Source: Shigella phage vB_SdyM_006
Sequence record: MK295204
Length of the DNA stretch: 64,000 bases
Strand: one strand, 5' to 3'
Made by a program: the position numbers and the translations under genes. Positions 2,762 through 41,951 of the stretch are shown here, piece after piece; within the stretch, counting starts at the first letter, position 1, and each line of letters opens with the position of its first letter. The notes beneath the pieces are model-generated. The model was not told the origin of the DNA and searched no databases. It saw only the letters and a program-made list of their open reading frames with translations.

Positions 2762-3810
2762 TATGAGTTAACCGATTCAACATGTAGGCTTAAGGCATAT
2801 TTAAATAATATTTCTTTTTCGTCTTCAGACAAGCCTTCTAATGCATTGATATATTCTCGAATGATAGTTTCTAAACTTTCAACAACAATATCATCAGAGT
2901 CATCAACTTCAGGTCCATCTGTAGCTACTTTAGAAACAACCTTTAATGAATGGACTACGGATTCTAATTTAGATTCAAATTCTGTAAATTTATCATCCAT
3001 TTTATTAACAATAACACGAACAGCGATATCTTTATAATCTTCAGGGTTAATATCTGAAGGATATTGAACACGTTGGTGCCACATTGTTTTATTTTGAACA
3101 AACTCTACACTAGAATCTTTAGGGTTAAATATCCATACACCTCTAGGGTCATCCTCATCGCCAGCAGTAATTGAATATGGAGTTCCAATATATAATACAT
3201 TACCAGCTTCAGAAATCGTATGGAAGTGGCCTGAATAGACTTTATCATATTTTTTAAGAAAGTCTGGTTCTAGTCCATGGGATTTCATTCCTTTATAAAA
3301 ATAAAATCCGTTTAATTCCCAATGTCCAATACATATTTTAGCATTAGACTTTTTAATATGGTCTAAAATCTCTTTAGTGTTTTCATCGCACATCCAAGGA
3401 ATTAAATCAATTAATGTTCCTTCTATTTCGACTGTTGTTGGTTTATCATAAATTGTTATATTATCATGTTTTGATAATAATTCCGAAACCGAGTTAGGAT
3501 GGATTTTATTTTTGAAATGTAAATCATGATTACCAATAATAACATGCAAGTTAATACCAGCTTCTTTAAGTAAATCCACATTTTCTCTACTAAATTCCAT
3601 TGTGACATGTGTAATGGCTTTACGTACATCGAACCAATCACCAAATTGAATAACTTCTGTGATTTTGTTTTGTTTACAAATTTCGATAATTTGTTTTATT
3701 GAATCTCTTTGGATATTTTGAATCCAAGGGTCGTCTTTAGCGACCCCATAATGTAAATCACCTACAAATAAAATCATCATAATATCCTTGTCAATTAAAA
3801 TTGATACCAC
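2761..3810 (-). CDS. 47: Recombination endonuclease subunit gp47 (SbcD/Mre11-like phosphoesterase)
   Basis: Calcineurin-like phosphoesterase motifs (GDLHYG, GDWFD, GNHD); true start probably internal Met (MILFVGDLHYG, near 3777). Confidence 0.9.
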   Translation of the reverse strand: MVSILIDKDIMMILFVGDLHYGVAKDDPWIQNIQRDSIKQIIEICKQNKITEVIQFGDWFDVRKAITHVTMEFSRENVDLLKEAGINLHVIIGNHDLHFKNKIHPNSVSELLSKHDNITIYDKPTTVEIEGTLIDLIPWMCDENTKEILDHIKKSNAKICIGHWELNGFYFYKGMKSHGLEPDFLKKYDKVYSGHFHTISEAGNVLYIGTPYSITAGDEDDPRGVWIFNPKDSSVEFVQNKTMWHQRVQYPSDINPEDYKDIAVRVIVNKMDDKFTEFESKLESVVHSLKVVSKVATDGPEVDDSDDIVVESLETIIREYINALEGLSEDEKEILFKYALSLHVESVNS

Positions 3811-3995
3811 TTTTTAATTCGTGCATTATCAGCAATAACTTCTTCTTTACCAGAGAAATTATAAGGAACCTGTGTAGATATCATCTTTGCACTTTTTTTA
3901 TTAAGCTTTACAAAATAATCATTGCCAAATTCAAATAAAGAATCAGGCTTAAGTTTTTTAAATGTCGTCTTTAGTATCATTTTTAGCATCTTCAA
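3795..3995 (-). CDS. Hypothetical protein
   Basis: 66-aa ORF in early-gene orientation between 55 and 47. Confidence 0.4.
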   Translation of the reverse strand: MKMLKMILKTTFKKLKPDSLFEFGNDYFVKLNKKSAKMISTQVPYNFSGKEEVIADNARIKKWYQF

Positions 3996-4308
3996 TTATT
4001 TTAAATAAGGCTTTTCTTGATGTTTCATAACAATAGTCAAGAACTGCTTTATCTGTTGATTGTTTATAAATTTTACGAAGTTTACCTAAAGCATAAACAA
4101 ATTGTTCTTTATTACCTTTAAGTAAAGAATCTTCATAAAGTCCTTTTAAACGTTTAATTTCTCGTCGTTCTTTACGAAGAATAACGTCGGCCCGTTTTTT
4201 AGCTTCTTCAAAAAGTTTTTCTTCATAGTCTTTAACTTCAGGGTCTAATTGAGATAAAGAATCAATTTTTATTTCTTGATTAGTCATTATATTTCCATTC
4301 AAAATCAA
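3958..4308 (-). CDS. Hypothetical protein
   Basis: 116-aa charged/helical ORF; no recognised motif. Confidence 0.45.
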   Translation of the reverse strand: MILNGNIMTNQEIKIDSLSQLDPEVKDYEEKLFEEAKKRADVILRKERREIKRLKGLYEDSLLKGNKEQFVYALGKLRKIYKQSTDKAVLDYCYETSRKALFKIIEDAKNDTKDDI

Positions 4309-4483
4309 AATAAATATTAAAATCCTCTATAGTATAGAAATAAGAAAACTCTCCCTGTTCAACAGAGATTGTCTCATCATATACATTAGTCGGATCAATT
4401 AAAACTGGTATATTGTACTTCTCTTTTAATAGAAGCTTAATAAGATATGGTAATGCATTTATATCGTTATATTCTTCAATCAT
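4280..4483 (-). CDS. Hypothetical protein (start trimmed to internal Met)
   Basis: ORF track gives 4280-4588, overlapping gp55 by 113 nt; internal Met gives a short overlap typical of this genome. Confidence 0.35.
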
Positions 4484-5027
4484 CGGGGTTAGATTGAGTT
4501 TCTGCTTTAAGTAATTCATAAAAATCATCCAATGTCGGTCCTGTATCATCAGCCTTTTTTGACCCGCTAGATTTAACAGAACTTTCATAAGAGTTTAATT
4601 TATCATATATGTCTTGTATAAACGTTTCGTCTGCAATTTGAGATAAATCTGTATCAAATTCATCATAAACGTTATGGACAAAGTAGCTATATTTTATTGC
4701 CATTTCTTTTCGTTCTTTTTTAATACGCTGAACAAATGCATTAAAACAAGCCTTAGTGATGTAAGCATGTGGATTATTATATTTCTTCTCATCAAAGCCA
4801 TATAAACCTTTTATAGTAGCTTCAATACCGTCCCAATACATTTCTTGTTTCCAATCAGGTGTATATCCAGAAAAGTTATAACGATAGGAAAGGCCTTCAG
4901 CTATAAGCATAATAGCGCGTCCAATAGAATCAGGGATTTTTACCTGATAACCAGCATCATAACAGTCTTGTTTCCACTTACAAATTTCTTTATATAATTC
5001 TTTATTGTTAATATAATTATTCATCAA
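4476..5027 (-). CDS. 55: Late-transcription sigma factor gp55
   Basis: 183 aa (T4 gp55 is 185 aa); sequence resembles T4 gp55; T4-like position. Confidence 0.85.
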
Positions 5028-5040
5028 GAACCTCCAAGTT

Positions 5041-5235
5041 AATTATATACAAAAATAATATTTTGCATTTGCAATCAAGGAGCTGCGCTCCTTGATATTT
5101 TTATTATTTTATTAAGTTCTTTATATATTATATATAACTATTAAGTAATAAATTAGTAACTCTAGTAAATTAATTTATTAAAAGTCTAGTATATTCTATA
5201 TAACTATTAAGTAATAAATTAATAACTCTATGTTA
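5041..5235. repeat. Intergenic repeat module copy A: GC-clamp stem-loop (GGAGC-TGC-GCTCC) plus two copies of an AT-rich promoter-like unit
   Basis: Core unit tatataactattaagtaataaatta occurs twice here and twice at 40474-40664; the stem-loop plus T-run is shared by both loci. Confidence 0.7.
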
Positions 5236-6657
5236 CTATTTTCTGGTATGTTCTATCCAGTCTTTTACTATTTTTTGATCTTCTATATTATCAGGGTCTA
5301 ATTTTCTACCTAGTTTTCTTAGAAGATACATATAACGATATTTTTCTTTAGTAGTCATTTCGTATTGTTTTTGAAATGATAATCGCTTTCTTGTTTGTTT
5401 TGCTTTAGGAACTTCTAACATGTAATCAGTACAGATAGTAGCATTTTTAAAATACTTATCTTTTATATACTTTGCTAATCTCATATCAGGAACAAATAAA
5501 TTAACTTTTTTATTGCTTTTATTGACCCGGATATTAGTTCTTGCACATAATTGAAAAGCCGGTTCAAGATATTTTGATACTATATAAGCGTTAACTAATT
5601 CATCTTCTTCTAACCCTGCTGATATAGCAAGTTCTTTTAGTATAGGAATTTGCCATGGTAATGGGTTAAAGCTAAACATGACTACAACGTTCCTATAATC
5701 CGTATAGGAGTTTAATCCATGTGGGTTATATGGAACTTCAAGTCCTTTATTAAAACGCGCCCTGTATGAATTCCTGGTGTATATAAATGGCTCATCTCCA
5801 ATTAACCCGTCAAGAATATTTTTGATTCTGGAATAATTGGTTAAACCATCAATTTCTTTATCAGCATTATGTTTAGACCAAGAATTTTCAAACATAACGT
5901 TTATTTGGATTCTTGAAGTATTAGAATATTCTTTAAATACGAGTTTATCTTCTAGAGGTGATTTAACAAAATCCCATTTGTTAAAATATTTTAGAATTTT
6001 ACCAGTAAAAGTGTCTTCTATATTTGCTGCAGAAATAGTTACTTTATCAAAAACTTCCCAATCTTTACTAGACACGTCATTAATAAAATAGCATGTTGCG
6101 CCAGATTCCGTTTTAGATATTTTTGTTGGAATACCTTGTAATAAAGCTTTGTATAAAGGGAGTAAACTCACACAGATATCATCTAATTGGTTAATACCCT
6201 GTAATGCAAGTTCTTCTATTTCTTCTTTATATTTTTCATCTAAAATAAGATCTGATAATCCATCACTTATAGGAAGACAATATTTAAGGATTTCTTCTAA
6301 ATTATGAGAAAACGTAAATTTATTAAATGACACTAATTCTGGGACTTCATCAATATATAGACTAAATCCTTTGAACTTACTAAAATCCGTAATTGATAAC
6401 AATGCAGAATGAGTTATAAACAAAACATCTGCTTGTGTTTCTTCAATAGCTTTATTAACAGACTTTGAGCCAAGTTTATTGTCAGAATCAATTAATACCC
6501 CTTGTCCGCCCAACGAGCAAAAATAATCAAAGGATTGCTTAGACAAAAGCCTCGATATCGAGGCTATAATTGATTTTTCTTTTTTATTGACAATATTTTC
6601 TACAATGGCTTTAGTCTTTCCAGCAGCTGGAATTGCTTTTAAGACTTCAATTTTCAT
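5236..6657 (-). CDS. P-loop NTPase of unknown function
   Basis: 473 aa; Walker A-like AIPAAGKTKA near N-terminus and Walker B-like LYIDEV about 90 aa later; large C-terminal region with no recognised motif. Confidence 0.6.
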   Translation of the reverse strand: MKIEVLKAIPAAGKTKAIVENIVNKKEKSIIASISRLLSKQSFDYFCSLGGQGVLIDSDNKLGSKSVNKAIEETQADVLFITHSALLSITDFSKFKGFSLYIDEVPELVSFNKFTFSHNLEEILKYCLPISDGLSDLILDEKYKEEIEELALQGINQLDDICVSLLPLYKALLQGIPTKISKTESGATCYFINDVSSKDWEVFDKVTISAANIEDTFTGKILKYFNKWDFVKSPLEDKLVFKEYSNTSRIQINVMFENSWSKHNADKEIDGLTNYSRIKNILDGLIGDEPFIYTRNSYRARFNKGLEVPYNPHGLNSYTDYRNVVVMFSFNPLPWQIPILKELAISAGLEEDELVNAYIVSKYLEPAFQLCARTNIRVNKSNKKVNLFVPDMRLAKYIKDKYFKNATICTDYMLEVPKAKQTRKRLSFQKQYEMTTKEKYRYMYLLRKLGRKLDPDNIEDQKIVKDWIEHTRK

Positions 6658-6974
6658 TATTTAAATCCATTTGCACGTAATTTTTTATATTTACGAATAC
6701 CTTTTGTAGTAATTTCTGTAGGACCTTGGATATTAGGCTCGACACCAAATGCCTGAATACCAAAGTTATTTAGAATAGACTCTACCATAATTTCTCTAAT
6801 ACCTGTTTTAGAAATTTGGTGATGGTCTTTGTTAAGAGAGGAATGAAGCTTTTGTTCATGTATATCTAAAAATCTTGGAGTTACAATTTTATCTTCACTT
6901 AATAATTCTTCAGCGATAGGAAAAATATAATTTTTAATTTCATTGCGAAGTAACTTACTCATAATCATCTCCAA
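6657..6974 (-). CDS. Hypothetical protein
   Basis: 105-aa ORF translationally coupled to neighbours. Confidence 0.45.
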   Translation of the reverse strand: MEMIMSKLLRNEIKNYIFPIAEELLSEDKIVTPRFLDIHEQKLHSSLNKDHHQISKTGIREIMVESILNNFGIQAFGVEPNIQGPTEITTKGIRKYKKLRANGFK

Positions 6975-7233
6975 TATATTTTTTTAATCCAGATAAACCA
7001 CCAACTGATTTATCATTAATGAATATTTGTGGGTATATAATACTAAGGTTTTGTTTATTAAGCATTTTTGCTAGAGAAATAATTGTTTCTCTGTGATAAT
7101 CAAATCCTTCTGGTGTATTATATAGAACCGGGATAAAAGTGTACTCTAATTTATGTTCTTCACATAATCTAACAGCTTCTTTACATGAATAACAACGACC
7201 AACTTCTTCAGGAATGCCATAAATTATTATCAT
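6955..7233 (-). CDS. nrdH: Glutaredoxin-like protein (NrdH-type)
   Basis: 92 aa with CYSC active-site motif near N-terminus and glutaredoxin-fold pattern; adjacent to nrdG/nrdD. Confidence 0.75.
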   Translation of the reverse strand: MIIIYGIPEEVGRCYSCKEAVRLCEEHKLEYTFIPVLYNTPEGFDYHRETIISLAKMLNKQNLSIIYPQIFINDKSVGGLSGLKKYIGDDYE

Positions 7234-7466
7234 AAAAATTTAGTAAGGCCAACATTCATATAAAATCTATGTTTGATATTAGGACCTTTAACTTCAATTG
7301 CCATTTTGTCATAAATTATCCAAATATACTGATAATCTACATCAGAAGGGAGATTGAACATATTATTGTCTTCTAATTTAGCATTTAAAAATTTAATGCT
7401 TAAAAAGCCTAATCCAAAGTCACATTCTTCCCAACTTCGGATTCCTAGTTGTTCTTCAATTGTCAT
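7230..7466 (-). CDS. Hypothetical protein, paralog of the 7468-7710 ORF
   Basis: 78 aa; shares N-terminal G-I-x-S-W-E motif with the adjacent ORF. Confidence 0.45.
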   Translation of the reverse strand: MTIEEQLGIRSWEECDFGLGFLSIKFLNAKLEDNNMFNLPSDVDYQYIWIIYDKMAIEVKGPNIKHRFYMNVGLTKFL

Positions 7467-7467
7467 A

Positions 7468-7710
7468 TTATTCTCTTTCTAAAATAAATTTTTTAATATT
7501 GTAATCTATACCATCAGATTCTTCAACGTCTTTAACATTGAAGCCATCGCCATAATAAGTTATAGAATAATAATTAGGCAAATTTTCTGGTTTAGGAGGC
7601 AATCCAAATATGTTATTTTCTTTTAGGACAACACCACAAAAACATTCTTGTTCTCTATCAAACCAATCAGATTCCCAGCTTTCAATACCATAAGCATCAT
7701 CTAAAATCAT
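7468..7710 (-). CDS. Hypothetical protein, paralog of the 7230-7466 ORF
   Basis: 80 aa; YGIESWESDWF motif. Confidence 0.45.
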   Translation of the reverse strand: MILDDAYGIESWESDWFDREQECFCGVVLKENNIFGLPPKPENLPNYYSITYYGDGFNVKDVEESDGIDYNIKKFILERE

Positions 7711-7718
7711 AATAACCC

Positions 7719-8195
7719 CTAGTTATAGTTAACCCATTTATTATTAATTTTTCTATACATTTTTTGATTATCTGAACCACGATAAGGCTTATCAGTTGGT
7801 TTAGTATAGTCATACTTTCCATCTATAATAACATCAACATACTCTAAAAGCTCTAAGGCTTCTTCTGGGATATCATTAAATTCATATCCGGTCCAAAGCC
7901 ATACATCTTTCCCTGTTTGTTCTTTAACTTTTTTACAGATATCAATAACGGATTTAATGTTAGAACGATACAAAGGGTCGCCGCCTGTGATTGTTAAACC
8001 TTTAATATATGATTTATTAACCATAGAGATTAAATCGTCTAGAGTTGATTCTGTGAACTCCTGTCCATTACGCTGGTTCCAAGTAGACTTGTTATAGCAT
8101 TGTTCACATTTATGAGAACATCCAGTAACAAAAAGGACCGTTCTAAATCCTTCGCCGTTTAAAGAATCACATGGGACAAGTGATGCATAATTCAT
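7719..8195 (-). CDS. nrdG: Anaerobic ribonucleotide reductase activating protein NrdG (radical SAM)
   Basis: GCSHKCEQCYNKSTW cluster typical of NrdG; start trimmed to MNYASLVPCDS so the 8216-8230 hairpin lies upstream. Confidence 0.85.
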   Translation of the reverse strand: MNYASLVPCDSLNGEGFRTVLFVTGCSHKCEQCYNKSTWNQRNGQEFTESTLDDLISMVNKSYIKGLTITGGDPLYRSNIKSVIDICKKVKEQTGKDVWLWTGYEFNDIPEEALELLEYVDVIIDGKYDYTKPTDKPYRGSDNQKMYRKINNKWVNYN

Positions 8196-8210
8196 TTTAT
8201 TCTCCATACC

Positions 8211-8232
8211 AAAAAGGACCCGAAGGTCCTTA
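8211..8232 (-). terminator. GC-clamp tetraloop hairpin (GGACC-CGAA-GGTCC) followed by U-run on minus strand
   Basis: Read directly; sits between the 8234-8566 ORF and nrdG. Confidence 0.45.
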
Positions 8233-8233
8233 A

Positions 8234-8566
8234 TTAACAATAAGCGTAGCATTCATTAGATTTTTTCTTATATACAGAATCACTATTTGTCCAGTCAACA
8301 TCTTCGGGGTCAAAATAACATTCTGCATCTTCATATGAACTTTCTAATCTAAGAGCTTTATGGGCAATTAGACGTTTGTCAGAACGAGATATTTTAGCTT
8401 GAACATTTTTAACTTCGGAAGAGATTCCTTTCCAACGTTTAGGTTTATCAGAGTGAAAAATATTATTTGATACTTCTGTTTGACAGATATTACCACGTGG
8501 TTTTCTTGAAGTAACATCATAATAACCATTATTTTTAACAGTTTTTCTTCTAATAGTTTTACCCAT
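8234..8566 (-). CDS. Hypothetical basic protein
   Basis: 110 aa, lysine/arginine-rich N-terminus; inserted between nrdD and nrdG. Confidence 0.45.
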   Translation of the reverse strand: MGKTIRRKTVKNNGYYDVTSRKPRGNICQTEVSNNIFHSDKPKRWKGISSEVKNVQAKISRSDKRLIAHKALRLESSYEDAECYFDPEDVDWTNSDSVYKKKSNECYAYC

Positions 8567-8575
8567 ATTAATTCC

Positions 8576-8839
8576 TTATGCTAAATGTCTACTCAAATGC
8601 GAAAACCCATTATCTTCTAACTTTTTAATATTTCTTTCTAAAGAATCTTTGTCGTATACAAAATACCCATCATCGGCTTTTATAATAGTACTTTGGCCAG
8701 TTTCAGGGTCTCTTGCAATAGCCAAACCAATATGATGAAGGACTGTTGTATTAATAAAATACAAAAGACCTAAATCCGACATATCATTCCAGTCTAATTC
8801 TGGTTTTTCTGGAATAATATTAATTCCTCTTTGTTGCAT
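8576..8839 (-). CDS. Hypothetical protein
   Basis: 87-aa ORF between nrdD and nrdG. Confidence 0.45.
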   Translation of the reverse strand: MQQRGINIIPEKPELDWNDMSDLGLLYFINTTVLHHIGLAIARDPETGQSTIIKADDGYFVYDKDSLERNIKKLEDNGFSHLSRHLA

Positions 8840-8849
8840 ATATTAATCC

Positions 8850-9041
8850 TTAAAACAATTGGATTCGTTCTTCTAAAATATTTTCATATTCTATCATAGT
8901 GTTTAATTGAACTGTTAATAAAGCTTGTTCTTTTTCACTTAAAGAGTTAAACATGTCGGTCGTTCTAAAAGATGATAATTTATAAATTTTATCACTTAAT
9001 TCGGTCTTTTCATCAATTACTCGTTGTTGATGTGGTTGCAT
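8850..9041 (-). CDS. Hypothetical protein
   Basis: 63-aa ORF immediately after nrdD. Confidence 0.4.
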   Translation of the reverse strand: MQPHQQRVIDEKTELSDKIYKLSSFRTTDMFNSLSEKEQALLTVQLNTMIEYENILEERIQLF

Positions 9042-9084
9042 ATATTAATCCTTTATCAAATCCAGTGGCAGGATGCCATGGTAA

Positions 9085-10956
9085 TTAGTCTAATTTATCA
9101 TTTAATATTGGTTTAGCAATATGTTTTGTTCTATGGATAACTTCTTTTTGTTTACCTTCGTTAAACCCACGAGAAGCAGGATTTCCAAGATATCCACAGG
9201 TACGACGGACAACAGACATTTTCTTTACATCCATTTCACCACATTTTGGACATTTAAACCCATTTTCTGTAGGAATAAATTCTCCATGGAATTCACATGT
9301 AAAGCATTGGTCAACAGGAGTATTTGTTCCAAAATAATCTAGATTTTCTACAGCATAATCCCAGACCTGTTCTAATGCATCAAGATTATCCTTCATATTA
9401 GGGAGCTCAACATAAGAAATATGACCACCAGATGCAATACGGTGATAATCCTTTTCAAATTCAATTTTCTCAAATGGATTAACTTTACGTTCAACATCAA
9501 GATGGAAACTATTTGTGTACCAACCTTTATCTGTAATTCCTTTAACAGAACCAAATTCTGCTTTATCTAATTTGCAGAATCTGTGACATAAACTTTCTGC
9601 GGGAGTAGAATAAAGACTAAATGCATATCCAGTTTCTTCTTTCCATTTAGAAAGATAATAATTTATTTCTTTAAGAATATGTTTACCAAATTCTTGGGCT
9701 TCTTTATTATCAAATGGTTCATCATTAAAAATCAGTTTTAATGTTTCGTGTAAACCAATATATCCTAGCGAAATAGAACTTCGTCCATTTTTAAATAATG
9801 ATAATATTTCGTCATTAGGGTTCATACGAACACCAAAAGCGCCACCACAATATAAAATTGGAGCTACAGAAGCTTTTGCACCACGTAAAGAATCAATTCT
9901 AGTCATAAGAGCAGTATAACAGAGGCCAAGACGATCTCTCAATGATTGGATATATGATTCTTTAGATAAATTGTCACTACCTAATTCCAGGGCTATTCTA
10001 GGAAGATTTAATGTGACTACACCTAGATTATTGCGTCCATCTAAAATTTCTTTGCCATTTTCTTTATAGACACTTAAAAAAGATCTACACCCCATAGGAG
10101 AAACTGGGACCGAACTACCGGTTATTTCTTTATTAATTTTAGACGAAATAATATCTGGGTACATTCTTTTAGCTGAACATTCTAATGCTAATTTTTTAAT
10201 AAAATAATTAGGGTCTTCAGGTTTAAGATTAATTCCTTCTTCAATAAAGAAGACTAATTTAGGAAATATCGCAGTTACTTCATCTTTGCCTAAGCCTTTA
10301 ATTCTATTTTTAAGAATAGCTTCTTGGATAACTGTGCCGGCCCATGAAGTAGAAGTTCCAAAAGAAATAGTCACAAATGGCGTTTGTCCATTAGAGCTAA
10401 AAAGCGTATTTATTTCATATTCATACGCTTGGAAAGCGTCATAAACATCTTTTTCTGTCTTCTTCATAGCATAATCTTCCCAATCAGGAATACGCCATTC
10501 AAAAGCTTCATTAAGATGTTTTTGGTATGTAGCTTCTACGTAAGGCTCAAGAACAACATCAACATTTGCAAATGTTGTTCCACCATATTGATGAGAAGCA
10601 ACTTGGGCTGTGACTTGGGCCATAATTGCACAAGCTACACCAATTGATTTAGGTGTTTCTATTTCCGCGTTACCAAGCTTAAATCCATTTTCAAACATGC
10701 CTTTTAAATCAACTAAACAACAATTTGTAAAAGGCAGTGATACACTATAATCTAAGTCATGATAATGAATAATACCTTTGTCGTGTGCTTCTACGACATT
10801 AGAAGGCAATCTACTACGAGCCACGTACTTGGAAGCAATTCCGGCCAGTAAGTCACGTTGAGTAGGAAAGACACCATAGGGCTTGTTTGCATTTTCTGTA
10901 GAAAGTTCATTTGATTCACGATTACATACCTCATTAATTTGAGAAATTAAGTTCAT
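9085..10956 (-). CDS. nrdD: Anaerobic ribonucleoside-triphosphate reductase NrdD (glycyl radical enzyme)
   Basis: 623 aa; C-terminal glycyl radical motif RTCGYLG and Zn-ribbon CxxC pairs; continuous ORF with no intron interruption. Confidence 0.95.
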   Translation of the reverse strand: MNLISQINEVCNRESNELSTENANKPYGVFPTQRDLLAGIASKYVARSRLPSNVVEAHDKGIIHYHDLDYSVSLPFTNCCLVDLKGMFENGFKLGNAEIETPKSIGVACAIMAQVTAQVASHQYGGTTFANVDVVLEPYVEATYQKHLNEAFEWRIPDWEDYAMKKTEKDVYDAFQAYEYEINTLFSSNGQTPFVTISFGTSTSWAGTVIQEAILKNRIKGLGKDEVTAIFPKLVFFIEEGINLKPEDPNYFIKKLALECSAKRMYPDIISSKINKEITGSSVPVSPMGCRSFLSVYKENGKEILDGRNNLGVVTLNLPRIALELGSDNLSKESYIQSLRDRLGLCYTALMTRIDSLRGAKASVAPILYCGGAFGVRMNPNDEILSLFKNGRSSISLGYIGLHETLKLIFNDEPFDNKEAQEFGKHILKEINYYLSKWKEETGYAFSLYSTPAESLCHRFCKLDKAEFGSVKGITDKGWYTNSFHLDVERKVNPFEKIEFEKDYHRIASGGHISYVELPNMKDNLDALEQVWDYAVENLDYFGTNTPVDQCFTCEFHGEFIPTENGFKCPKCGEMDVKKMSVVRRTCGYLGNPASRGFNEGKQKEVIHRTKHIAKPILNDKLD

Positions 10957-11423
10957 TTTAAAGATTTCCTTAAAGCTTTTTTGTATCTTTTAGTTAACTC
11001 GGTTTTTGTATCTGTTTCTAGATATTCAAATCCGTGTAATACCATTTCTTCTATCATTTCTTCTTTAGACAACCGAGAAAACTCTTTAGATTTGTCTATT
11101 ATATACTGTGGATGGATAGGATTTTCACTGCTGTCTTTTTTTAAGTAAAATAAAAGGTTCTCCATCCAATTAATATATTCTACTTTAGATTTTAGTCCTG
11201 AACGATTAAATTTATGCTTCAACTGTCCTTCTGCTGCATTACATAAAGGGCATAATAATCCACGAACTCTTCCAGCTTCAGGACCAGATAACGCATGGTC
11301 ATGGTCCAAATGATTTTTTTGAACATCTTTATCTAATTCTAAACGACAAATACAACAAAGGCCCTTTTGGGCCTTATATAATTTTTCTTTTTCTTGTTTA
11401 AATGATTTTCCGGATAATAACAT
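10953..11423 (-). CDS. 49: Endonuclease VII (Holliday junction resolvase) gp49
   Basis: 156 aa, near-colinear with T4 endo VII (CCICRLELDKDVQKNHLDHDH..GLLCPLCNAAEGQ). Confidence 0.9.
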   Translation of the reverse strand: MLLSGKSFKQEKEKLYKAQKGLCCICRLELDKDVQKNHLDHDHALSGPEAGRVRGLLCPLCNAAEGQLKHKFNRSGLKSKVEYINWMENLLFYLKKDSSENPIHPQYIIDKSKEFSRLSKEEMIEEMVLHGFEYLETDTKTELTKRYKKALRKSLK

Positions 11424-11462
11424 TATAACCCCTATAATTTATCATATAGAGGTATTTATTAA

Positions 11463-11717
11463 TCACCAAACCAAATATTGTGGAGTCAGCTTTTTAGTAT
11501 ACTTAATAAGATTTCTTATTTGTTTTCTTGTAGGTTTAACATCAAAAACATTTAAAGCCACACGTTCATGTGGATATTCACCCACTTTAACTTTTAATGT
11601 CCATCCTAAAACTATATGTGGAGCCATTTTACAATAAGAAATTTGTACCTTTACCGGATTTTTAGCATCATTACTTGAATACTGTATAATTGATGGTGTA
11701 TTAATTTCATAGCTCAT
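11463..11717 (-). CDS. Hypothetical protein
   Basis: 84-aa ORF between nrdC and 49. Confidence 0.45.
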   Translation of the reverse strand: MSYEINTPSIIQYSSNDAKNPVKVQISYCKMAPHIVLGWTLKVKVGEYPHERVALNVFDVKPTRKQIRNLIKYTKKLTPQYLVW

Positions 11718-20314: not shown

Positions 20315-20609
20315 CGTGTACTAATTCCTTTTTAAGATTGTATACGTATTCTTGTGCTGCTGTTTTGCCATCTTCACTACATTTGTTATTTTGACAGTTT
20401 GTTTCTTCCCATTTGGTTCTAATGAAAGCATAAAACTGCTCAGATTCTTCTTTAGAAGGTTCTTTCAATTTACTGTACACAGACATGGCACCTTCAGCGT
20501 ATACATTAAAATATTTATCGTCTGATGCATACGCGCTAGAAAACCCAATGCATAGTGTTAAAACACATGCAATTATGCCAGGTGAAAAGTAATTTTTGAA
20601 CTCGGCCAT
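20307..20609 (-). CDS. Secreted/periplasmic small protein
   Basis: 100 aa; hydrophobic N-terminal segment ending AYASD (signal-peptide-like). Confidence 0.45.
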   Translation of the reverse strand: MAEFKNYFSPGIIACVLTLCIGFSSAYASDDKYFNVYAEGAMSVYSKLKEPSKEESEQFYAFIRTKWEETNCQNNKCSEDGKTAAQEYVYNLKKELVHDE

Positions 20610-20636
20610 AAGGCCTCCATTATTCTAGTAAATCAT

Positions 20637-20849
20637 TTAATGACTTATAATCTTAAATTTATAAATCATCTTGACTTCAGAGAAATAGTTGAGTAGCTTT
20701 TTATACTGCAAATAATCAGCATGACTTTGGGTTTTATCAAACTCAAGCTCTGCCATTTTTAAACACGGCTTAAATTCTCTTATATGAATACCTAGTTCTA
20801 ATGCTGACATATTTCTTAAAGTTTTTTTAGAAAGCATATCAATAGTCAT
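20637..20849 (-). CDS. Hypothetical protein
   Basis: 70-aa ORF after tk. Confidence 0.4.
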   Translation of the reverse strand: MTIDMLSKKTLRNMSALELGIHIREFKPCLKMAELEFDKTQSHADYLQYKKLLNYFSEVKMIYKFKIISH

Positions 20850-20870
20850 AAAATCTCCAGTCAGTTTATA

Positions 20871-21437
20871 TTATTTATTAAATTCAAAATAATGCTTACG
20901 ACAAAATGATTTGTACTTATCATCACCTCCTATTTCAATTGTGTCTCCTTCTTTAACTGCTTTTCCTGAAGGGCTACACTTTGCTGTATGGGTTGCTTTT
21001 CTTCCACACCAACAAACTGCTTTTAGTTCTTCTAATTTATCAGCCCAGGCTAATAAAGCAGCTGAGCCTTCAAACAATTCACCTTTAAAATCAGTTTTTA
21101 ACCCAAAGCACATAACTGGGATCTGATGATTGTCGACAATTTTTGTCAATTGAAGAACCTGAGCCTTTGTTAAAAATTGACATTCATCAATAAGAATAGC
21201 TGCATTGTTTGTACCAATACTTAAATAAAGATTATACAAATCAGTTTCTTTAGAAAATAAAATACACTGTTCTTTTATCCCAACCCTACTAGAAATAACA
21301 CCTTTATCACGAGTATCAATATCGGGTTTAAGAAGTAAACAACTCATTTTTTGCTCTTTATAATTATTATTAACGGATAACAATTTTAAAGATTTACCAG
21401 CTGCCATAGAACCATATACAAAATACAATTGAGCCAT
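20871..21437 (-). CDS. tk: Thymidine kinase
   Basis: P-loop YGSMAAGKS and C-terminal Zn cluster CWCGRKA...CRKH; start trimmed to MAQLYFVYGSM by alignment to the T4 Tk N-terminus. Confidence 0.9.
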   Translation of the reverse strand: MAQLYFVYGSMAAGKSLKLLSVNNNYKEQKMSCLLLKPDIDTRDKGVISSRVGIKEQCILFSKETDLYNLYLSIGTNNAAILIDECQFLTKAQVLQLTKIVDNHQIPVMCFGLKTDFKGELFEGSAALLAWADKLEELKAVCWCGRKATHTAKCSPSGKAVKEGDTIEIGGDDKYKSFCRKHYFEFNK

Positions 21438-21438
21438 A

Positions 21439-21651
21439 TTATTCCTTAATCCATTTAACCCAAAGAACACATTCTGCTTCTTTAGGTTTACCTGTTTTTG
21501 TTTTATAAGTATATACTACTTTGTGTTCTAAAAATTTAATAGGGTCTGTTAAGCCTACCCATGTCTTAGTTTCTCTAATAGATTCATGATGACTCAGAGA
21601 AATAAGGCGTCCTTCTTTTTCCATTTTAAATGGATGCGGTAAATGTGTCAT
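21439..21651 (-). CDS. Hypothetical protein
   Basis: 70-aa ORF immediately upstream of tk. Confidence 0.45.
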   Translation of the reverse strand: MTHLPHPFKMEKEGRLISLSHHESIRETKTWVGLTDPIKFLEHKVVYTYKTKTGKPKEAECVLWVKWIKE

Positions 21652-21767
21652 TCAAATGTACCTCTAAAAGCAAAAAATATACAAATAGCCAAAACTGGAA
21701 AAAGAATAACAGAAACTAAGGTATTAATAAACAATTCGCTAAGTAAAAATTCCATATTTGTTCCAAA

Positions 21768-22208
21768 TTATTTTAATTCTTTAAATCTCATTTTATCATG
21801 ACCATCTATTCGATAAGTCCCGTATTGTCCAACATTATCCACTATATTAACAACAATTTCACCATTGCAAACTCTAAATAGTCTAGCAAGTTTAGTCACT
21901 TCATACTTATTGATAATAAACTGGGGACCAAGAATGTCCCCATGAACTGCTCGATTACACCCAGAAACAAAAAATTTACCATTAGGAATAGATATAGAAT
22001 CAGAATGGTCAATTAAAGAATAAAATGTTGCTCCAAAGACACGTTTTTTAGGTTGCCAAACAATTTCTATATTTGACTTTTTGAGACCTGCATTTTCTAT
22101 CAAAGACCCAGATATTCCGTATAATTTAGGATTTACATATCCTGGGACTTCATACCATGAGAAAGTGCAAGAACTAAAAAATATAAGACATGCTAATAAG
22201 TATTTCAT
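21768..22208 (-). CDS. Secreted protein/lipoprotein of unknown function
   Basis: 146 aa; signal peptide MKYLLACLIFFSSC. Confidence 0.5.
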   Translation of the reverse strand: MKYLLACLIFFSSCTFSWYEVPGYVNPKLYGISGSLIENAGLKKSNIEIVWQPKKRVFGATFYSLIDHSDSISIPNGKFFVSGCNRAVHGDILGPQFIINKYEVTKLARLFRVCNGEIVVNIVDNVGQYGTYRIDGHDKMRFKELK

Positions 22209-22519
22209 TGATTTATCCCTGCAATGTATTTGTCCATTAATGCTCCTCTATATGTTTCACATATTTCGCTATTAGGCGCCTTTTCGCATAAAGAAGATAG
22301 TGAATTTGCTTTATTTTTTAAAGCAGATATTTTGTACTCCGCATCTTTTTTTGATTGTAAAAATCCTTCATGAAAAGAAGTGCTCAATTCAACAGATAAA
22401 ATATTGATACATTCTATATCATCACCACAAAAGTATTTTGCTACATCTATAGATTCTGACATATTATTAGATGCAATCACCGGAAATGTTACTAAAAATA
22501 ACAATAAAAGTTTTTTCAT
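22205..22519 (-). CDS. Secreted cysteine-containing small protein
   Basis: 104 aa; signal peptide MKKLLLLFLVTFPVIAS. Confidence 0.5.
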   Translation of the reverse strand: MKKLLLLFLVTFPVIASNNMSESIDVAKYFCGDDIECINILSVELSTSFHEGFLQSKKDAEYKISALKNKANSLSSLCEKAPNSEICETYRGALMDKYIAGINQ

Positions 22520-23083: not shown

Positions 23084-23499
23084 AATTTAATTACCTTTGT
23101 TGAAATTTTAGATGATAAACGTGTTGGATTAACTATAGCCATACGACATGTTAATCCATATGTTCCCTGTGTTCCTTCAGATGAAGTGAATCCAATCCAT
23201 AGTTTCCCATCTGTAATTTCTAACCTAGTAGGTCTATATTCGATATTAGGGTCTGGATTTTCTATAGGCATATCAGGCAATTTACAGTAGTCTAAAATAG
23301 ATTCCTTTGCCTGATATAATTTATTTAATAGACTAAAAATATCACTTAACGGAATTCCACGTTCTAAAGTCCTGTCAATAATATGACTTTGGAATTTAAT
23401 ATGGAACCCAGCGTTTTCTTGATTTAATTTTGAGTTAATTTCTGAGAAAGCATCAGCGAACTTCCTACGTGCTTTGGCTCGTTCTACATGAATGTTCAT
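23080..23499 (-). CDS. regB: Endoribonuclease RegB
   Basis: 139 aa; YRPTRLEITDGKLWIGFT ... CRMAIVNPTRL matches T4 RegB. Confidence 0.85.
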   Translation of the reverse strand: MNIHVERAKARRKFADAFSEINSKLNQENAGFHIKFQSHIIDRTLERGIPLSDIFSLLNKLYQAKESILDYCKLPDMPIENPDPNIEYRPTRLEITDGKLWIGFTSSEGTQGTYGLTCRMAIVNPTRLSSKISTKVIKF

Positions 23500-23897
23500 T
23501 AAATAGTCTCCAATTTTTTACCATAAAACTTATACCAATCAGGTTTTTGAGCGATTTTTTCATCTAATCTTGATTTAGATAAAGATATATCGTCTTCAGA
23601 CGGTGTATAATCATTATACCATTCTTTAGGAAAAATGAAATCAATTTTTTCAAAAGAAATGTTAAAGCCACGTTTTTTACATTCTTGGACTATCTGTTGT
23701 TGGCGAATTTCTAAAAATTTGAGTTTGTTATAAAAGAATTTGACATGACCTGTACCAAGGACGTAGTTGGCAGGAATTTTGACTGGTTTACCAAAAGCTT
23801 TTAAAGCCAAAGTAAACACACGTGGAAGTTCGCGATATTCAGCGATGAGATGTTGATCGGTAAGAAGTGCTGGGTCTAAAAGATTAATACGTGTCAT
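23499..23897 (-). CDS. denV: Endonuclease V (pyrimidine-dimer DNA glycosylase) DenV
   Basis: 132 aa; MTRINL..DQHL.AEYRELPRVF ... RLDEKIAQ.P.WYK.YGK near-colinear with T4 endo V. Confidence 0.9.
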   Translation of the reverse strand: MTRINLLDPALLTDQHLIAEYRELPRVFTLALKAFGKPVKIPANYVLGTGHVKFFYNKLKFLEIRQQQIVQECKKRGFNISFEKIDFIFPKEWYNDYTPSEDDISLSKSRLDEKIAQKPDWYKFYGKKLETI

Positions 23898-23949
23898 ATA
23901 TCCTCCATTAATTTAAGAATATACTAACACGTATTTTTATTAAAGTAAA

Positions 23950-24318
23950 CTAAATTGTATCAGTAAATGTTCTGTTAATTACATCTTCTTTCTGTTCATC
24001 AGTTAAAGAATTAAATCTAACAGCGTATCCAGAAACTCGGATAGTTAACTGTGGGTATTTTTCTGGATTTTCTCTTGCGTCTAATAACATTTCTTTGTTC
24101 AATACATTAACATTTAGATGCTGGCCACCTTCGATTCGTGGAGCAAATTCTAAAGCTAAATCTTTTTGAGTAGAATTACCAAATGAAGTCATTGGAACAA
24201 CTTCATCTTCTTTAAAATATTTTGATGCTAAAATTCTACAATTATTTGTTTCTGTATCTACTAAAAAGATTGTTCCATAAAAAGGACCAGAAACAAGTTG
24301 TCTTGCTTGAATTGACAT
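23950..24318 (-). CDS. Autonomous glycyl radical cofactor (GrcA/YfiD-like)
   Basis: 122 aa; [11 protein letters not shown] ... [31 protein letters not shown] closely matches E. coli GrcA including the RVSGY glycyl-radical motif. Confidence 0.85.
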
Positions 24319-24484
24319 TATTTTACCTCGTACATGTATGGATTAGTATCGTTAATATCTTTAACAAATCCATAGAATTTTTTATTGACATATAATGCAA
24401 TAGCATTTTTATGTTGGACCCATGCTAAATTATATAACTTATCAGAATTACCAAACGCACCTTTAGCTTCATTTAAAATCATAA

Positions 24485-24973
24485 TCAACACCCAATAAAA
24501 TATATAATAGGATAATAGCCAGTAAAAGCTATTGTACTTGTTAAAGCATCAATAAAATCAAAAGTGTTAAGTCCCATAGGTTCTTCAATAATAAAAATTG
24601 GAGAATTTAAACAACGGCCTCTAAAACGATTATGCCAACTTGGATTGGATAATGCTCTTCTGGAAGCTTTAATAAACTCTACACTTTTAATAGGTTTAAT
24701 GCCTGTCTTTTCAACATGGCCATTATATTTTAGTTTTGTGTCTAAAGCAGTATGCCCGATAATAAAAATATCTCTATGTGGATTTCTTAGTTTTTGTTCT
24801 AAAGCAAATTCTGATATTTGAGTAGATTTGTAAGTTTGACGTCCAAAATCAAGTTTGCATTGACGATATTCATAAACTACACTAAATATTGAACGTGTTA
24901 CCGTCCTCATTTTATTAGTATCATTTGCTTCACATTTATCTAAAAATTGTGTCATTAAATCATAGTAGTTCAT
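24485..24973 (-). CDS. Hypothetical protein
   Basis: 162-aa ORF; no recognised motif. Confidence 0.5.
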   Translation of the reverse strand: MNYYDLMTQFLDKCEANDTNKMRTVTRSIFSVVYEYRQCKLDFGRQTYKSTQISEFALEQKLRNPHRDIFIIGHTALDTKLKYNGHVEKTGIKPIKSVEFIKASRRALSNPSWHNRFRGRCLNSPIFIIEEPMGLNTFDFIDALTSTIAFTGYYPIIYFIGC

Positions 24974-25164
24974 TTGTTTCTCCTAATGGCCTTACTAGAT
25001 GAAATAGTAAGGCGTAGTGATAATTTAAGTTAAAATAGCCTTTTCTAATATTTCTGCTTTGGTCCAAGTAATGCCAAAACATTCCATTGGCGTTTTATCG
25101 TTAGTAAATAAATTGTTTACTAGTTGTTTGCACTCAATTTCTATGAGTTTTAAATCGGTTTCTG

Positions 25165-25347
25165 TCATAGATTTACTTCTTTAATTACAATTTTTTCGCT
25201 ATACCCAGGATAATCACATTTAATATAACTATCTTGGGATAATTTACTTTCAAACATCCAATCTTCTAATTGTTGTTCACCAGAACATGACATAAAGGCC
25301 ATAAACGATTCGGCTAAATGGTCATCAATCTCTATAGTAATTTGCAT
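25165..25347 (-). CDS. Hypothetical acidic small protein
   Basis: 60-aa ORF coupled to the M15 peptidase gene. Confidence 0.35.
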   Translation of the reverse strand: MQITIEIDDHLAESFMAFMSCSGEQQLEDWMFESKLSQDSYIKCDYPGYSEKIVIKEVNL

Positions 25348-25348
25348 A

Positions 25349-25720
25349 TTATCTCTTTAATTGGAAATGAGGACCATCTTTAAATGTTTTCCAATCACCA
25401 CCCCATTCTATAGCAATACCAAGTTCATTTGCTGCTTGTTTCATTGCTTTGGCAACGAGTTCAAATTTAGACCAATCTTGCCATGGGATAGCTTTATTAA
25501 CTAATGGTCCTAAGTCTACGGCTTCACCTGTCAAATGATAAGAATTCATAGTTTTAGAAACGCCTTTTCGGACATTTTCTTTTTGCTGTTCTACCGAACG
25601 TAGGCCTTCAATAACCATAAAATCTATCTCGGTTATTTGAATTGCTCGCTCTACAACTTTAACAAGCTCAGGTTTAACGCCTTTTAATCTATCTTTTGAT
25701 CTTTGTGATAATACGTACAT
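25349..25720 (-). CDS. M15-family L-alanyl-D-glutamate peptidase (T5-type endolysin)
   Basis: 123 aa; VKPEL.KV..RA...DF.V.EG.R ... SxHLTGEAVD ... WGGDW ... DGPHFQL aligns with the T5 endolysin / M15 zinc-peptidase signature. Confidence 0.75.
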   Translation of the reverse strand: MYVLSQRSKDRLKGVKPELVKVVERAIQITEIDFMVIEGLRSVEQQKENVRKGVSKTMNSYHLTGEAVDLGPLVNKAIPWQDWSKFELVAKAMKQAANELGIAIEWGGDWKTFKDGPHFQLKR

Positions 25721-25759
25721 AAGTTTCTCCTTTGTTTGCTTATGTACGTATTTATTAAA

Positions 25760-26209
25760 TTAGAAATCCTTATATCCTGGTGATAATTCACTAAGCATGT
25801 CTAAAAAGTGTTTAGAATCTGCAGCTAGCTCATCTTTGTTAACAGCCAATAGAATTGGTTCATTAAGTAGATTATACTTTTTAACCATTGCTTTAAAATA
25901 TGCTAAAAGATGATTATCAGTTTTTACTGATACATGGATATCGTCATCATAAGAATCAAACCCGTCATCATAAGTAGTATATCCATAAATGGTAAATACA
26001 ACATTTTTTAATTCTTCTAAAGGATTTTCTACATCAGGGAAATGCTTAGTTAATAAAGGTTTTAGACTTTCGCCATAAGAAGCAAGCACTTTATCTGTTA
26101 GTTCTAAAGTAATCTCACATTCAACCATGTCGTGTTTAATTCGTCCACCTTCTTCAAAATCACCAACTTCAGCAATTAAATCAAATAGTTCTTTATCGTT
26201 AATAATCAT
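25760..26209 (-). CDS. Hypothetical highly acidic protein
   Basis: 149 aa, roughly a quarter Asp/Glu. Confidence 0.5.
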   Translation of the reverse strand: MIINDKELFDLIAEVGDFEEGGRIKHDMVECEITLELTDKVLASYGESLKPLLTKHFPDVENPLEELKNVVFTIYGYTTYDDGFDSYDDDIHVSVKTDNHLLAYFKAMVKKYNLLNEPILLAVNKDELAADSKHFLDMLSELSPGYKDF

Positions 26210-26450
26210 TTTGTTTCCTTAAAATAGATGTACCATAATTAATATAATAAACATCATCTTTGTCTAAGCAACAGGTTCCAATAAAAATCTTATGGGTACA
26301 AGATTGCAATGAAGCTAATGCTTCTTTAAATGTTATTGCATTAACTACAGCAAGTTCATTTGTTAAGATGGTATGATTGCCTACATAAGCAAAATCATAT
26401 TCACTATTATTGATGACCCTAATAATAGTTGTTGGATGTATTTCGGTCAT
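26199..26450 (-). CDS. Hypothetical protein
   Basis: 83-aa ORF. Confidence 0.4.
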   Translation of the reverse strand: MTEIHPTTIIRVINNSEYDFAYVGNHTILTNELAVVNAITFKEALASLQSCTHKIFIGTCCLDKDDVYYINYGTSILRKQNDY

Positions 26451-26740
26451 TGAATTTTATCCTTAAACCGTTCTTGTGTCCATTCGTCAAGTCGTATAAT
26501 AAAGTCGTTATCAGTAGGGCCTATATATTTTTCTACTGCTAAAATATGAAGTTCTACTACAGAAGACGTATCATTATAAACAGCTTGGGCCAATTCTTCT
26601 AGAGACCCTTTAAATGCTCTAGAATAACATTGACCTAAAACACCTGAACTAATAAAAACTGGCTCAGTTTGTCGTTTTACAGATAAATTAGGATAAAAAT
26701 ATTTTACAAGATTAATAAACTCTTCAGTTAAGTCTGTCAT
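26447..26740 (-). CDS. Hypothetical protein
   Basis: 97-aa ORF coupled to nudE. Confidence 0.45.
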   Translation of the reverse strand: MTDLTEEFINLVKYFYPNLSVKRQTEPVFISSGVLGQCYSRAFKGSLEELAQAVYNDTSSVVELHILAVEKYIGPTDNDFIIRLDEWTQERFKDKIQ

Positions 26741-27147
26741 AAATCTAGTACCTTAATTAACAATTTAGCCTGGGATTTTGAGCAATATTTAGAGATATCA
26801 TTCAAATCAACCCATTTAAATTGGTCGTTTTCTGGGAATGTTTTACCATATTTAGTATACATACTAGTACATACACAGGTCTCAGCATCAGGAAAGTGTT
26901 CACTATCATATAAAAACAAATGCATGTTTTTGCCTTTATAATAAAAGTGTTCGCCCAAATCAATTAGTTCTTCAGGGTCTTTAACATCAAAATTTGTTTC
27001 TTCTTTAACTTCTCTTAAAGCGGCTTCTAATGCTGTTTCACCTTCATCAATATGGCCTTTAGGAATACCCCAATAAGGAGTATTTGTTGCATGGCATAAA
27101 AGGATTTGTTCGTTTTTTATAAAAATAATTCCAGATGAGATTTCCAT
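26737..27147 (-). CDS. nudE: Nudix hydrolase (NudE/e.1-like)
   Basis: 136 aa; Nudix box GHIDEGETALEAALREVKEETN. Confidence 0.85.
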   Translation of the reverse strand: MEISSGIIFIKNEQILLCHATNTPYWGIPKGHIDEGETALEAALREVKEETNFDVKDPEELIDLGEHFYYKGKNMHLFLYDSEHFPDAETCVCTSMYTKYGKTFPENDQFKWVDLNDISKYCSKSQAKLLIKVLDL

Positions 27148-27155
27148 TTTTATCC

Positions 27156-27377
27156 TTAATATTCAGCGTTATATAATCGAGACATAAGGTCTCTTAACAT
27201 TTTTGCTTCTTCATTAGATAGACTTAATGATTCGCGATAATTAATGTCACTTGGGATATCTGAATTATTTTTTAAAGTGTCAAATAAAACATCCATGCCA
27301 TGTTCTGTAAATTCTACATCCTCACAGAACAAATAATGATCACTAGATTCGCTAGTGATATGAAAAGCTATATACAT
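27156..27377 (-). CDS. Hypothetical acidic protein
   Basis: 73-aa ORF. Confidence 0.4.
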   Translation of the reverse strand: MYIAFHITSESSDHYLFCEDVEFTEHGMDVLFDTLKNNSDIPSDINYRESLSLSNEEAKMLRDLMSRLYNAEY

Positions 27378-27637
27378 TTTATATCCTCTATAATTGAAAG
27401 AGTGTAATTAAGACTATATTTAAATTGTGTGGATTCACTCCATGAGACATCTCCTCGATATCCATACATAGTATCATAAACTATAAGAACACGGTCAGCA
27501 CCATTATCTAATAAAAAGCCATAATAAATTGTAAATTGACGGTCTTTAACACTATTATAGATATAGCAGTCTTTATATCCTAAAGTGGTTTTTATTTTTA
27601 AGGTGCTTCCAATTTCAATTACTAAATTAGGGTTCAT
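27368..27637 (-). CDS. Hypothetical protein
   Basis: 89-aa ORF. Confidence 0.4.
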   Translation of the reverse strand: MNPNLVIEIGSTLKIKTTLGYKDCYIYNSVKDRQFTIYYGFLLDNGADRVLIVYDTMYGYRGDVSWSESTQFKYSLNYTLSIIEDIKCI

Positions 27638-38555: not shown

Positions 38556-39232
<677 letters not shown>

Positions 39233-39252
<20 letters not shown>

Positions 39253-39892: not shown

Positions 39893-39894
39893 AA

Positions 39895-40473: not shown

Positions 40474-40664
40474 ATTAGTTTCCTTGTTTTATTAATTTAT
40501 TAAAAGTATAGTATATTCTATATAACTATTAAGTAATAAATTAATAACTATATGTTACTATTTCTAAAGAAATCTGGAGCTGCGCTCCAGAATTTTTATT
40601 ATTTTATTAAGTTCTTTATATATTATATATAACTATTAAGTAATAAATTAATAACTGTACGTTA
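40474..40664. repeat. Intergenic repeat module copy B: promoter-like unit, stem-loop (GGAGC-TGC-GCTCC) plus T-run, second promoter-like unit
   Basis: Same building blocks as 5041-5235 but in a different order. Confidence 0.7.
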
Positions 40665-41941: not shown

Positions 41942-41951
41942 CATATAATAA

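Follow-up and report, generated by a model that had tools for sequence, protein, structure and literature searches.

A candidate accessory DNA helicase with an XPD/DinG-like fold in Shigella phage vB_SdyM_006 and other non-T-even T4-type phages

We analyzed a 64,000-nucleotide stretch of Shigella phage vB_SdyM_006 (MK295204), hereafter the window, and focused on a minus-strand gene that lies between gene 55 and a homologue of T4 gene 55.2. Its 473-amino-acid product carries the sequence motifs and the predicted fold of an active superfamily 2 (SF2) nucleoside triphosphatase motor with two RecA-like domains. With a confidence a little above even, we take its most likely role to be that of an accessory phage DNA helicase, which would work beside gp41, Dda, and UvsW on replication and recombination intermediates.

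The open reading frame (ORF; positions 5236..6657) starts with ATG and encodes a protein of 54.5 kDa with an isoelectric point (pI) of 8.5. The original prediction had described a 473-residue ORF with a Walker A (AIPAAGKTK) and a Walker B (LYIDEV) motif. Both motifs are present, and their catalytic residues are essentially invariant in the 32 homologues, 40-76% identical to the window protein, from whose alignment all motif invariance given here was read (Table 1). The consensus of these homologues includes PAAGKT (motif I), ASISRxLSxQS (Ia), ITHxAL, and LYIDEVP (II), and further TIxxAN (III-like), HGLNxY, and FQLCxRxxIR (VI-like). With two RecA-like domains, GKT in motif I, DExx in motif II, and QxxxR...R in motif VI, the protein has the hallmarks of SF2. 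The large uncharacterised C-terminal domain that had also been proposed holds up only in part, as much of it is the second RecA-like helicase domain and the rest is a basic tail of ~50 residues, standing where the long relatives described below carry a primase extension.

The AlphaFold2 model built from the 32-sequence alignment was confident, with a mean predicted local distance difference test score of 89.4 and a predicted template modelling score of 0.78. In a Foldseek comparison with the PDB, XPD (3crw, E 1e-9), DinG (6fws), and CasDinG came out on top, followed by Hna and SecA, and a fold search of BFVD returned only uncharacterised phage proteins. The 100-residue insertion between motifs II and III (residues 107-205) is, by its position, a candidate counterpart of the Arch domain in XPD and DinG, and the longer XPD/DinG alignment fits this insertion. 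A 4Fe-4S domain with four conserved cysteines was not found in the 32-homologue alignment, in which only C127 and C371 are invariant cysteines and the other columns contain at most 62% cysteine. Motif Ia is separated from the following core strand by ~35 residues, which leaves no room there for an iron-sulfur domain.

At the sequence level, no membership of the XPD/Rad3/DinG family was found by Pfam, phmmer, profile, or hhalign comparisons. The PDB sequences gave no helicase match to the protein (phmmer) or to the 32-member profile, and when the family profile was aligned with E. coli DinG by hhalign, the probability was 0.3%, which is not significant. The kinship with XPD/DinG is therefore one of fold. 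The XPD/Rad3/DinG proteins (PDB 9kqh, 6fwr, 3crv, 2vl7, and 5fmf_Y) have 550-740 residues and a 4Fe-4S cluster, whereas the window protein is shorter and without the cluster, and differs from them by DEVP as motif II, motif VI arginines spaced +4/+8, and a unique basic C-terminal tail. The type IV CRISPR-associated CasDinG (PDB 8s35_M, 8e2w, and 7xf0) is a protein of ~600 residues with extra accessory domains that acts in concert with a CRISPR effector complex; for the window protein there are no such partners and no sequence-level relation to CasDinG. By its modelled structure, the protein represents a separate SF2 helicase family with XPD/DinG-like topology that cannot be classed as an XPD/DinG member, and its working mode is probably like that of the XPD/DinG enzymes. 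T4 UvsW (PDB 2oca and 1rif) is likewise an SF2 helicase encoded by the T4-type phage lineage, and it acts on R-loops, forks, and recombination intermediates.

Among profile collections, the protein has a full-length match to PHROG 2467, whose function is unknown (E 3.1e-190, with residues 1-473 covering positions 8-496 of the 502-position profile). Pfam returned only DEAD and AAA_34 for the window protein at E<=10, the DEAD match being weak and sub-threshold (E 5e-4, 20.3 bits vs a cut-off of 26), and 10 of the 32 family members match DEAD, with a best E of 2e-8. The NCBIfam search of the protein gave nothing meaningful. The DEAD signal bears on another reading, in which the protein is a DEAD-box-type RNA helicase or RNA chaperone that acts on phage or host transcripts (mRNA remodelling or decay) instead of DNA. 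We consider this improbable. A Q motif is missing, since the P-loop begins 10 residues from the N-terminus of the 473-residue protein and leaves no room for one, motif II is DEVP and not DEAD, and no Helicase_C match was obtained. The hhalign comparison of the family profile with RhlE was not significant, and within this non-significant alignment the motif Ia-like stretch pairs with PTRELAAQ of RhlE.

The same motor core might also serve a translocase on double-stranded DNA or a protein-displacement motor, similar to Swi2/Snf2 or the motor subunits of type I/III restriction enzymes, which would strip host or phage proteins with no unwinding. This, too, seems unlikely, because the matches to such motors span only the ~250-residue core, neither Snf2-specific insertions nor a SNF2-rel_dom match were seen, and the primase-like fusions described next suggest single-stranded templates. 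Helicase-like, kinase-like, and defence-related functions had originally been offered side by side. The SF2 motifs, the weak DEAD match, and the fold speak for the first, and nothing supports the second or the third; a PADLOC-DB search at E<=1 returned no defence-protein family, neither for the helicase nor for the four small ORFs beside it.

The preference for a DNA helicase draws on distant relatives. A profile search of 1.84 billion representative proteins returned 1372 relatives at E<=1e-3, of which 800 remained at E<=1e-10. The 141 newly retrieved representatives include 77 of 450-600 residues and 55 of more than 700 residues. The long forms (~750-890 residues) align across the whole helicase (query residues ~1-440) and carry ~350 extra C-terminal residues with the motifs hhhLD[FI]DxGDL ... 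NSFS ... NRFRVF; an acidic DxD-type motif occurs in 46 of the 55. The extension matches Pfam PriCT_2 (E 1.2e-7) and, weakly, PriCT_1 and RepB_primase_C. Three of 10 proteins matched PHROG 9765 'DNA primase' (E 1e-5 to 3e-4), and a profile of the extension against PDB sequences yielded noise only. The primase-fused proteins also match PHROG 2467 itself at 1e-43 to 1e-60. In one relative (P0153) the order is reversed: the N-terminus is primase-like, and a helix-turn-helix lies at the C-terminus.

The long forms were found in an arrangement of Phage_integrase, AlpA, long-form protein, and Dam; on a 7.7-kb contig with a resolvase; directly downstream of a separate Prim-Pol gene, in an island that also carries genes for resolvase, TIR, kinase, and reverse transcriptase; on a contig with phage tail genes; and, in Methylobacterium, in an island made up of small ORFs and an HTH_3 regulator. 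Such layouts are typical for replication modules of integrative elements and phages, and the long relatives are probably replication proteins of integrative elements. Since the relatives are primase-fused, stand beside integrase and AlpA, resolvase, or Prim-Pol, or lie on a phage contig, we take the helicase to be a module tied to DNA replication, and mainly because of these contexts DNA is preferred over RNA as the likely substrate. SF2 helicase-primase fusions are the replicative helicases of phages N15 and PY54 and a candidate replicative helicase in phage PAU (PMC4889955). In architecture, the long relatives resemble such fusion proteins of phages and plasmid-prophages, namely the RepA proteins of N15 and PY54 and gp68 of Sphingomonas phage PAU, with its AEP primase domain. 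Most long relatives have the helicase at the N-terminal end and the primase at the C-terminal end, opposite to N15 RepA, and the window protein has no primase domain.

Within phages, the gene is conserved far beyond the nearest relatives of vB_SdyM_006. Over the 2.9 kb around it, identity is 97.1% to phiP4-3, a Proteus phage of the genus Bragavirus (Straboviridae), and 87-90% to the Proteus phages SJ_PmiM, PM2, and Pm5461. The window runs from within gene 45 through 46, 47, 55, nrdH, nrdG, nrdD, and 49, all on the minus strand, and corresponds to about 70-134 kb of phiP4-3 in reverse orientation. By tblastn, the helicase family was found in 241 phage records from non-T-even T4-type genera, always annotated as 'hypothetical'. 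Identity to the window protein is 92-99% in Proteus phages, 62-76% in Providencia, Morganella, Serratia, and Erwinia phages, ~55% in Aeromonas phages of the 25/Aes508 group, ~47% in the RB43, Cronobacter, and Enterobacter group, and ~42% in Aeh1-like Aeromonas phages and the RB49/Phi1/JSE group. T-even coliphages are abundant in the searched collection, and they appear to be without the helicase because only 54 'Escherichia' records were among the matches, all at 42-48% identity. The orthologues of phiP4-3 (98.9% amino acid identity at 97% nucleotide identity) and Pm5461 (92% at 87%) fit a family that looks to be under purifying selection. The protein was also checked as a possible conserved T4 core protein of known function and is not one. 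T4 and RB69 lack the helicase in the syntenic slot. It is additional to the known helicases and would be the fourth, because phiP4-3 retains gp41, Dda, and UvsW.

The position of the gene is conserved as well. In the window, the stop codon of the 55.2 homologue overlaps the helicase start (TAATG at 6657), and the stop codon of the NrdH-like gene overlaps the 55.2 start (ATGAGTAA). The order nrdH-55.2-helicase-55 is found in Phi1 (Krischvirus) and Aeh1 (Cinqassovirus). In RB43 (Pseudotevenvirus), 55.2 and the helicase are adjacent and the next gene is 34, not 55. In Aeromonas phage 25 (Tulanevirus), two ORFs stand between 55.2 and the helicase, one of them DprA-like and overlapping the helicase start. 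The order nrdH-55.2-helicase thus runs through all four other genera examined, each with a stop/start overlap of the helicase with its upstream gene. In T4 and RB69, gene 55.1 (in RB69 also ORF072c) fills the slot between 55.2 and 55. The T4 gene 55.1 product is thus the positional counterpart of the helicase, with 87 residues and no detectable similarity; we considered it as a helicase remnant and rejected this because no similarity was found. Mattenberger et al. reportedly found in 2011 that gene 55.1 affects host folate metabolism and nucleotide excision repair.

For expression, a MotA-box-like middle-promoter candidate lies upstream of 55.2 and the helicase, inside the nrdH-like gene. It is the sole match in 4900-11500, with ~0.14 expected by chance (an estimate), and may tentatively be assigned to drive both genes. 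No late promoter (TATAAATA) was found upstream of the helicase within 4900-9200. Pre-replicative expression is likely, because there is a single MotA-like box and no late promoter upstream. A sigma-70 promoter scan of the locus (26 matches vs 33.5 in shuffled sequence) gave no usable promoter call.

Table 1. Coordinates of the helicase gene, its motifs, and neighbouring features in the window
Feature	Positions	Strand	Remarks
SF2 helicase-like ATPase (PHROG 2467), XPD/DinG-like predicted fold, 473 residues	5236..6657	-	
Motif I / Walker A, AIPAAGKTK, residues 8-16	6610..6636	-	P10, G13, K14, and T15 invariant in 32 homologues
Motif Ia-like, ASISRLLSKQS, residues 32-42	6532..6564	-	From the 32-homologue alignment
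Motif II / Walker B, LYIDEVP, residues 100-106	6340..6360	-	D103, E104, and P106 invariant
~100-residue insertion in RecA domain 1 between motifs II and III, residues 107-205	6043..6339	-	Holds invariant C127
Motif III-like, TISAAN, residues 207-212	6022..6039	-	T207 invariant, N212 nearly invariant
Motif VI-like, FQLCARTNIR, residues 368-377	5527..5556	-	F368, Q369, L370, C371, R373, and R377 invariant
Basic helical C-terminal tail, residues 425-473	5239..5385	-	pI 9.7; W467 invariant
T4 gp55.2 homologue	6657..6962	-	tblastn E 3e-18, 35% over 100 residues
NrdH-like glutaredoxin	6955..7233	-	tblastn with T4 NrdH, E 8e-16
MotA-box-like middle-promoter candidate: AATGCTTAA, 12 nucleotides, TAGTAT	7040..7066	-	Regex scan
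Two tandem ~66-nucleotide AT-rich promoter-like repeat modules	5097..5255	-	Directly 3' of the helicase stop; PeSL-like (see text); repeat family D1
10-bp GC-containing stem-loop	5074..5096		Between repeat modules and gene 55; scored terminator-like on + strand
Gene 55, late sigma factor	4476..5024	-	Downstream neighbour of the helicase; annotated in phiP4-3
a-gt.5 homologue	4280-4588	-	tblastn E 4e-10
a-gt.4 homologue	3958-4308	-	tblastn E 1e-7
Small ORF	3795-3995		Weak positional match to a-gt.3

Taken with the fold, this arrangement suggests how the helicase may work. Its expression, from an nrd-nrdH-55.2 transcription unit, would precede DNA replication or coincide with it, and its translation would be coupled to that of the gp55.2 homologue. 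With the 5'-3' DNA helicases XPD, DinG, and CasDinG as its closest solved relatives by fold, but with the iron-sulfur cluster missing and a short basic tail, the enzyme would use ATP to move along single-stranded DNA, possibly with the same polarity, and may open or clear intermediates such as forks, D-loops, or R-loops.

Several points weigh against an accessory DNA helicase. Its support is wholly computational, and the sole sequence-family signal points to DEAD, whose members are mostly RNA helicases. The iron-sulfur cluster of the closest structural relatives is absent. The primase-fused relatives share only ~25% identity with the window protein, and their own role is likewise an inference. 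The T4-type replication scheme does not require such a helicase, since T4 and RB69 manage without it. Finally, the adjacency to 55.2 may be an inherited gene order and not a functional link, because no 55.2 homologue was found near the relatives outside the T4-type phages (Pseudoalteromonas phage HM1, Agrobacterium phage Atu_ph07, Salicola phage SCTP-2, and the mobile-element loci).

The location of the gene also lends itself to a different interpretation, in which the protein counters host defences, takes part in host takeover, or defends against competing phages, its gene being one of the accessory early genes like T4 55.1 and 55.2. The helicase occupies the T4 55.1 slot beside 55.2, whose T4 product targets a host enzyme (PMC4396842), and T-even phages can do without the gene. 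Its structural neighbours include Hna, DdmD, and CasDinG, which are defence helicases, and some long relatives lie in islands with TIR, reverse-transcriptase, or restriction-modification genes. These relatives resemble the replication module of their islands, with Prim-Pol, resolvase, and integrase neighbours, and not the cargo. Moreover, the PADLOC search was empty, the protein has no nuclease or other effector domain, and the family is kept at a fixed position across very divergent phage genera, unlike typical anti-defence genes with their fast turnover. We therefore give this interpretation only a small probability.

A bolder version of the accessory DNA helicase would join the long relatives with the neighbouring gene. 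T4 gp55.2 inhibits E. coli topoisomerase I and increases the copy number of R-loop-primed plasmids (PMC4396842). The window protein could be the primase-less form of an unrecognised replication protein of integrative mobile elements, composed of an N-terminal iron-sulfur-free XPD-like SF2 helicase and a C-terminal AEP-type primase with PriCT, and in non-T-even T4-type phages could have been kept translationally coupled to gp55.2 for joint action; gp55.2 would favour R-loops or negative supercoiling, and the helicase would resolve or exploit R-loops at origins. This is a speculative scenario with a low chance of being right. If true, a fourth helicase would control how these phages start or switch replication.

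The region 3' of the gene offers yet another possible role. The gene had been described as flanked by the repeat module. This applies to its 3' side only (5097-5255); at its 5' end, the gene directly adjoins the gp55.2 homologue. Two more copies of the module are at 40485-40684; all four are intergenic and on the minus strand, with 85% mean identity in the four-copy alignment, and the 2.9-kb query found 6-8 matching places in each related Proteus phage genome. By sequence, the modules are putative promoters and resemble the promoter-early/stem-loop (PeSL) cassettes described in RB49 and phi1 (PMC2839356). As the PeSL-like modules and a stem-loop directly follow the helicase gene, the protein might be a trans-acting helper for PeSL cassettes, for example in forming or replicating PeSL mini-circles, and a domesticated remnant of a mobile-element replication protein. 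The existence of a helper protein was left open by the authors who described PeSL or PeSL-like elements in RB49, phi1, 44RR, 25, Aeh1, and RB43 (PMC2839356); phi1, 25, Aeh1, and RB43 are among our helicase matches, and the relatives of the helicase are probably replication proteins of integrative elements. However, the association is purely correlative because the phages with described PeSL are the non-T-even genomes that were on hand in 2010. PeSL-like sequences were also reported in JS98 (PMC2839356), and the 64-kb window holds just four repeat copies. We regard a PeSL helper as very improbable.

T4-type phages serve as the standard model of phage DNA replication, yet this gene is 'hypothetical' in every database record. 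Its assignment as an extra, iron-sulfur-free helicase of XPD/DinG-like fold would give the RB49, RB43, Aeromonas, and Proteus/Serratia lineages, several of them in use for phage therapy, a further testable component for replication and recombination. PHROG 2467, so far of unknown function, would gain a function class and a link to the helicase-primase proteins of integrative elements, a large group that is itself uncharacterised.

The helicase had originally been brought together with the lack of a glucosyltransferase between genes 47 and 55, and this lack is real. The 47-55 interval (3810-4476) holds only three small ORFs, namely homologues of a-gt.4 and a-gt.5 and the weak match to a-gt.3. 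Compared with T4, the interval 3795-4588 is without a-gt, mobB, a-gt.2, and 47.1; RB69 has nearly the same reduced layout, an a-gt-less interval with a-gt.2 to a-gt.5 only. No glycosyltransferase was found in the window, where tblastn with T4 a-gt, b-gt, and gp42 gave best E values of 2.1, 2.7, and 0.08 and the RB69 arabinosyltransferases had no counterpart. A whole-genome check on phiP4-3 likewise gave no match to a-gt or b-gt at E<=1e-3, and its match to gp42 is only a 25%-identical thymidylate-synthase-family protein.

The search for arabinosyltransferases in phiP4-3 succeeded, with an RB69-type cluster between uvsX and gene 43 (38989-46466 within segment 100001-150000), ~5-12 kb beyond the window start; none of the cluster genes lies inside the 64-kb window. 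The cluster encodes a 304-residue protein, a second thymidylate-synthase-family enzyme, a U32-family protein, a TMP-kinase-like protein, a small phosphatase-like protein, a nucleotidyltransferase-kinase fusion, and a SIS-domain arabinose-5-phosphate isomerase. Identities to RB69 are 73% for gp48, 49-54% for gp46:47, 70% for gp55, 47-58% for gp52:53, 65% for gp51, 83% for gp50, and 40% for gp45, so that this 97%-identical relative has the RB69-type arabosyl-5-hydroxycytosine pathway. RB69 DNA carries arabinosylated 5-hydroxycytosine, with gp48 as the 5-hydroxy-dCMP synthase and gp46:47 assigned as the first arabinosyltransferase, and the Bragaviruses are among the lineages with the cluster (PMC13326640, 2026). 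Most likely, the DNA of this phage group contains arabinosylated 5-hydroxycytosine. RB69 gp3, which is proposed to be the second arabinosyltransferase, has no homologue in phiP4-3, and for this reason our guess would be a single arabinose (mono-arabinosylation) in this lineage.

For such phages it is normal to have no glucosyltransferase, a state already explained by published work and unrelated to the helicase. RB69 has the arabinosylation cluster and no helicase, and linking the helicase to the missing glucosyltransferase is unwarranted because the family occurs in phages with and without the cluster. We also considered the family as a marker of T4-type phages with unmodified cytosine (RB49, RB43, and Aeromonas phages) and rejected this, as the Proteus, Serratia, and Erwinia lineages carry both the helicase and the cluster. 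Arabinosylated 5-hydroxycytosine affects restriction and CRISPR sensitivity; it is already described for the genus, so our result is a clarification only.

Some minor observations were made in the related genomes. The DprA-like ORF directly upstream of the helicase in Aeromonas phage 25 has 191 residues and the motif GxGSRxTP...SGGAxGxD, and the DprA-like gene of phiP4-3 sits elsewhere in its genome (gp100). In the part of phiP4-3 outside the window (20481-22387 and 23473-27518 of segment 1-50000), thymidylate synthase is annotated as two pieces around a homing endonuclease gene, and another homing endonuclease lies between nrdA and nrdB.

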